From Eledone cirrhosa (Eukaryota): DNA of 64,000 nucleotides. The number at the start of each line of letters is the position of its first letter. The first letter of the stretch is position 1. The position numbers were made by a program, and so were the translations under genes. Below are positions 42,846 through 42,926 of this stretch, one piece after another. The stretch spans positions 6,634,001 to 6,698,000 of the forward strand of contig OZ024760.1 in the NCBI GenBank assembly GCA_964016885.1, read 5' to 3'. Under the pieces are notes generated by a model. The model was given only the letters and a program-made list of their open reading frames with translations. It had not been told where the DNA came from and made no database searches.

Positions 42846-42926
42846 GCTCTATATAGTCTTAAAAAGACTATTTCACGAAACTTTTCAGTGGGGATGGTCA
42901 CGGTTGGAATCGTTCATCAGTAGAGC
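42846..42926 (-). ncRNA. canonical type I hammerhead ribozyme with all three stems intact
   Basis: GCTCTA CTGATGA ACGA-(31 nt)-TCGT GAA ATAGTCTT-ttt-AAGACTAT A TAGAGC; AUA site, predicted cleavage between 42852 and 42851. Confidence 0.9.

Follow-up and report, generated by a model that had tools for sequence, protein, structure and literature searches.

A high-copy 626-nt hammerhead repeat of Eledone cirrhosa with the sequence characters of an animal retrozyme and an end hairpin shared with a Hydra-clade Penelope-like element

Animal non-LTR retrozymes are non-coding elements whose head-to-tail units carry one type I hammerhead ribozyme each; they have no LTR, PBS or PPT, they co-occur with Penelope-like elements (PLEs), and they measure 170-400 nt in invertebrates (PMC7229834), the range across the families treated in 10.64898/2026.07.22.740005 being 51-972 bp. 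It has been proposed that PLEs mobilise them (PMC7229834), a proposal to which PLE co-occurrence and the homology of retrozymes to PLE pLTRs have been added (10.64898/2026.07.22.740005); in both papers the mechanism is left open. As to the PLEs themselves, those of the Hydra clade, in which hammerheads have been called universal, are described as having (TA)n targets, a fixed 3' end after the hammerhead, partial tandems, inverted 5' arms and an optional tail (PMC8557442), while for Poseidon PAc of Anolis it was reported that the PLE reverse transcriptase starts inside the RNA in vitro, at a stem-loop where pLTR and ORF meet, that two start sites define the PLE tail and that hammerhead cleavage is dispensable (PMC11167929). 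For cephalopods, the pertinent text of PMC6962438 merely counts the hammerheads of a squid genome, and the main texts of the literature searched yielded neither a cephalopod retrozyme nor an account of the bulged hairpin described below.

The window analysed here is a stretch of 64,000 nt of the Eledone cirrhosa genome (contig OZ024760.1, positions 6,634,001 to 6,698,000), to which all coordinates refer unless a sampled genomic locus (labels in L) is named. On its minus strand, at 42926-42846, a first-pass annotation made from the letters alone had described a complete type I hammerhead, and each of the parts that it listed is indeed found in its place: a stem I of 6 bp (42926-42921 with 42851-42846), an intact core (42920-42914, with GAAA at 42874-42871), a stem II of 4 bp closing a 31-nt loop II (42909-42879), and a stem III of 8 bp with a 3-nt loop, followed by an AUA triplet and a predicted cut at 42852/42851. 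The type I characters present are the CUGANGA and GAAA core, an NUH triplet, three stems and an open stem I; as regards stem III, the contrast that had been drawn with Penelope-type motifs is likewise borne out, this stem being stable here and minimal and palindromic in the neighbouring ones. In 60 shuffled windows a motif whose stems measure 6, 4 and 8 bp was encountered 0 times, a relaxed hammerhead motif arose by chance at 0.017 per shuffled window, and the 93-nt hammerhead fold has a z of -3.1. At both thresholds the Rfam scan left the hammerhead at 42926-42846 undetected, probably because of its long loop II; the assignment comes from the motif scan, together with the covariation discussed below. 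The statement that the motif is single-copy in the window is accurate for the hammerhead of the repeat family described below and too broad for hammerheads in general, two of another family (30384, plus strand; 16031, minus strand) passing the same scan. Other families are represented in the window by these two and by further cores of hammerhead or hammerhead-like form at 41897 (minus) and 8247 (minus), and the sampled genomic loci carry dozens of hammerhead families, most of them with an end in (TA)n. At 40770-41000 a long near-perfect inverted repeat, in which each strand bears the 5' half of a hammerhead-like core, probably represents the end of a PLE together with the arm inverted from it. 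One local retroelement protein had its closest database match in Octopus vulgaris (69%), which agrees with an octopod as the likely host.

The uniqueness that the annotation had implied was not upheld in the genome as a whole: the hammerhead belongs to a young copy of a repeat present in high numbers and is 97% identical to its nearest copy. A 231-nt query returned 2563 candidates in the genome, 40 of which were scored, at 94-100% identity; exact matches numbered 211 for the core motif and 680 and 1580 for two other motifs of the unit, with 0 in reversed controls. When these counts are scaled by the exactly matching fraction of the sampled copies (15/54, 4/70 and 26/70), an estimate of some 2,400-4,300 units results, or in rounder figures about 2,000-4,000 dispersed copies. 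The unit, circularly permuted and defined on the natural array of locus L033, is 626 nt long with a GC content of 33% (622-643 nt in most overlaps). Units lie head to tail, each with a type I hammerhead, in dimers spaced by 606-630 nt, and L033 contains three of them. The unit is non-coding, and three antisense frames in it gave no Pfam match above the cut-off. A metagenome pattern scan had 0 matches.

The copy in the window extends over 42346-43092 on the minus strand; it is truncated at the 5' side, has the fixed 3' end of the family at 42346, beside (CA)(TA)n, and lacks the 135 nt that contain the hairpin. Its 3' end is interrupted by a high-copy SINE-like insertion (42368-42582, minus strand), flanked by a 17-bp duplication with one mismatch (42351-42367 and 42583-42599). 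Contig ends accumulate at 42364 and 42582 in two contig runs from one sample; they yielded repeat boundaries and variants alone. In the spacer of the unit, a CRE-like palindrome (43045-43052), which may be a promoter element, is retained in 129 of 173 aligned segments. The copy adjoins an AT-rich tandem array with units of 10-30 nt (43319-44860); elsewhere in the window, tRNA-derived SINE heads are seen at 4334-4397, 6554-6611 and 41053-41110, and a similarity to part of such a head is seen in the array at 19100-22233, which has a period of 29/58/87.

Across the genome, 159 of 181 mapped segments, a set from which overlapping loci were incompletely removed, stop at one position of the unit, 257 nt past the cut site. 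A set of 134 distinct insertions with this canonical end and a length of at least 266 nt, part of which was picked by hammerhead patterns, has a mean identity of 90% to L033; TA repeats flank 91 of the 134 on the 3' side and 94 on the 5' side. The 5' ends are scattered around the 626-nt unit, as expected of random truncation, and inverted 5' arms were found at seven loci. Most copies are shorter than two units and do not form long arrays; 48 of the 134 insertions exceed one unit, the longest reaching 2006 nt (3.2 units), and no long source array was found among the first 100 places listed for the core motif and for one other motif of the unit. Copies that stop at one 3' position, are cut short on the 5' side, form partial tandems, carry inverted arms and lie in (TA)n have characters of a PLE derivative; the PLEs of the Hydra clade show them too (PMC8557442), the optional tail included. 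At two loci (L020, near 1401-1457, and L100, near 1338, both on the plus strand) the unit is fused to the ends of other hammerhead elements with no TA spacer, which may reflect nested insertion or template switching.

The position of the cut site within the copies bears on the nature of the template. When copies were sampled solely through a motif lying 3' of the cut, one out of 70 begins at the cut site, which is about the expectation under uniform drop-off, and 69 read through it. A linear monomer released by cleavage was therefore not the template; nor, in the same 70 copies, do 5' ends accumulate at this site, as they would if they recorded cleavage in vivo. A pile-up at one unit length was rejected as evidence of a circle, since it coincides with TA microhomology. 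The template was either circular or a tandem RNA still uncleaved, and sequence alone fits both.

Judged by its sequence, the unit has the characters by which animal non-LTR retrozymes are recognised: in common with those described in PMC7229834 and 10.64898/2026.07.22.740005, it has a single type I hammerhead per unit, no coding capacity, a GC content of 33%, a head-to-tail arrangement, no LTR, PBS or PPT, and the company of PLEs. It differs from them in its length (626 nt, against the 170-400 nt of invertebrate retrozymes), in occurring mainly as dispersed truncated copies instead of long arrays, and in its 8-bp stem III; moreover, prediction has a complementary arm blocking its hammerhead, a feature ascribed in PMC7229834 to plant retrozymes and viroids and not to most animal retrozymes.

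About 8 nt past the fixed end of the unit lies a bulged hairpin, ACTC-N-GAGTRC, which is shared by several unrelated hammerhead families and matched 103 times in the sampled loci, against 2 matches in the reversed control. Its interior varies by family, an upper stem of at least 3 bp after the 2-nt bulge being present in 14 of 30 variants and in 6% of shuffles. A Hydra-clade PLE family of the same genome has this hairpin at the matching position beside its own fixed end: in 25 of 30 copies the order is ORF, UTR of about 1 kb, hammerhead and, within (TA)n, the fixed end; a tail carrying the hairpin follows in four copies, and at one locus, L316, the hairpin lies at the pLTR-ORF junction. The protein of L316 has a DKT motif, a CxCX5C linker, CxxC and CxH beside the EN residues and a C-terminal EN, and the locus adds a hammerhead and (TA)n; Pfam gave no match on this protein, and the motifs, read by eye against PMC8557442, fit an autonomous-type PLE of the Hydra clade. 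The unit itself differs from this PLE in having no ORF and no homology outside the hairpin, as well as in the distance from hammerhead to end, 257 nt in the unit and about 45 nt in the PLE; indeed, a sensitive BLAST of the unit against the PLE loci found no homology, and what the two have in common is limited to the two 9-nt halves of the hairpin motif, plus its position. In a second, abundant Hydra-like family (L221-L250), whose 3' UTR runs into a GT/AT microsatellite, no hammerhead core of its own was found within 1.5 kb of the ORF, although hammerheads have been called universal in the Hydra clade (PMC8557442); hammerhead cores at 3 of these 30 loci resemble those of neighbouring elements.

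In position and structure the hairpin matches the start site reported for Poseidon PAc (PMC11167929), and for this reason the Hydra-clade protein may be thought to dock on it. In both cases the start would lie downstream of the hammerhead cut site, which is read through; Poseidon PAc, however, is autonomous, belongs to another clade and has an AC-rich stem-loop inside its ORF, whereas the end of the unit maps just 5' of a bulged hairpin flanked by AU.

The conservation and folding of the ribozyme were considered on 76 of 145 available segments, rows being picked so as to reduce redundancy and to retain a divergent subfamily, many of them through the core pattern. The first pair of stem I is A-U in 57 rows, G-C in 17 and otherwise in 2; position N7 is U, G or C, and every other core position is altered in at most 3 of the 76 rows. 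Stem III has no covariation in this alignment, and in 17 of the 76 rows stem II has U-U or A-C as its first pair, within the subfamily that has the stem I compensation. The latter is probably a single subfamily event; taken with the confinement of variation to N7, it supports selection on the hammerhead fold. Folding predictions bear on the competence as a monomer that the first-pass annotation had thought probable: stem II does not exceed a probability of 0.03, the minimal construct included, and that of stem I falls from 1.0 to at most 0.02 upon addition of the native flanks, because an upstream arm (42952-42934, minus strand) pairs with 42902-42886 of loop II (duplex of -16.3 kcal/mol); one pair of this helix is partly compensated (U-A in 36 rows, A-U in 26, other in 14, of the 76). 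Since the helix crosses stems I and II, it could be either an activating pseudoknot or a blocking rod. Pseudoknotted hammerheads in which loop II can pair with the flank of stem I have been described (PMC3088659), by 4-6 bp; the pairing here amounts to about 15 bp in two helices and may be inhibitory instead. A nested folding model favours the blocking rod, the hammerhead fold costing 6.6-9.9 kcal/mol with native flanks. The transcript 42830-42945, suggested along with the first-pass annotation as a cleavage assay, leaves out 42952-42947, half of the arm, and so does not represent the native context. As a circle, the 626-nt monomer has an MFE z of -5.0 against 40 shuffles; for the rod-like fold of the 257-nt part, alignment folding gave almost no covariation (2 of 29 pairs).

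The reading that we consider probable is that the unit is a non-LTR retrozyme of the animal kind, for whose mobilisation a Hydra-clade PLE supplies the reverse transcriptase in trans. The most serious alternative, to which we give distinctly less credence, keeps the unit as a passenger of a PLE and has it templated by uncleaved linear read-through RNA of a tandem locus, the hammerhead being blocked or dispensable and the circle unused; the reading through of the cut site in 69 of 70 copies and the predicted loss of stem I in native flanks, at the folding cost given above, agree with it, as does the report that cleavage-dead RNA inserts normally and that RNA left unprocessed serves as the main substrate (PMC11167929). 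It accounts less well for stem I compensation and N7-confined core variation, which suggest that source elements are under selection for the active fold, and for insertions of up to 3.2 units in a genome where no long source array appears among the first 100 listed places. Replacement of the Hydra-clade partner by a very active PLE of Neptune type seems unlikely. Of this very young element (L036, 2585-4564, minus strand; also L191-L220) 142 copies were scored, with protein identities of 99-100%; it has open frames of up to about 1,200-1,300 codons, two alternative 3' ends and a hammerhead core with no obvious stem III. Like the unit, it combines a hammerhead with a fixed end in (TA)n and a tail that is optional, and at one locus, L036, the unit is joined to it directly. 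Yet its end and its tail have neither the hairpin motif nor any sequence in common with the unit, and neighbouring insertions of the two are accounted for by the (TA)n targets common to both.

That the unit is instead the pseudo-LTR of an autonomous PLE absent from the sampled loci, its copies being the 5'-truncated ends of that element, we regard as improbable, even though the anatomy of the unit is that of a PLE end, the retrozymes of Xenopus match pLTRs (10.64898/2026.07.22.740005) and the sample comprises a few hundred out of thousands of copies. Of the 30 loci picked by the hairpin, none leads into an ORF; all 30 run into the unit, and 28 reach the hammerhead some 270 nt later. An ORF-bearing parent was also sought in 142 5' flanks and found in none, nor do these flanks have a common element sequence at one breakpoint, while long copies wrap back into the unit. 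Least credible by far is a domesticated ribozyme regulating ZO-1, after the manner of the conserved intronic hammerheads of amniotes. The window does contain a 48-nt ZO-1 coding exon on the plus strand (38870-38917), the start of PDZ1, recognised through the PDZ exons downstream, of which the PDZ1 exon lies 5.7 kb beyond the window and another best matches human ZO-1 (E 1.7e-10). The repeat sits in the intron of about 31 kb that follows, antisense to the gene as had been claimed, with core and stems intact. The amniote hammerheads are single-copy and sense to the host gene, however, whereas this one is multi-copy and antisense, so that ZO-1 pre-mRNA does not contain it; the copy is 97% identical to unlinked ones, truncated and interrupted by the SINE-like insert. 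A link of the ribozyme to ZO-1 is thus unsupported, and its location is ordinary.

Under mobilisation in trans by the Hydra-clade PLE, loci longer than one unit would be transcribed, the tandem hammerheads would excise a monomer and a host ligase would close it, a series of steps about which we are evenly divided; the pairing of the upstream arm with loop II would set whether the ribozyme cuts. We incline somewhat more to the ensuing part, in which the PLE protein would bind the hairpin and nick (TA)n DNA, and cDNA would start internally, just 5' of the hairpin. The reverse transcriptase would then run round the template until drop-off, and the copy within ZO-1 would be one dead-end insertion with no role for that gene. 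The furthest-reaching form of the proposal, that the hairpin serves the reverse transcriptases of Hydra-clade PLEs as a docking signal in cis and that a retrozyme circle with an arm-loop II switch undergoes rolling-circle target-primed reverse transcription, is put forward only tentatively; were it true, the mobilising enzyme of an animal retrozyme would be named, and the signal as well. Within a single genome there are dated insertion products by the thousand, a candidate for the enzyme and, as candidate for the signal, a stretch of 25 nt common to several unrelated hammerhead families; the mobilisation of a retrozyme therefore becomes directly testable by the in vitro assay of PMC11167929.
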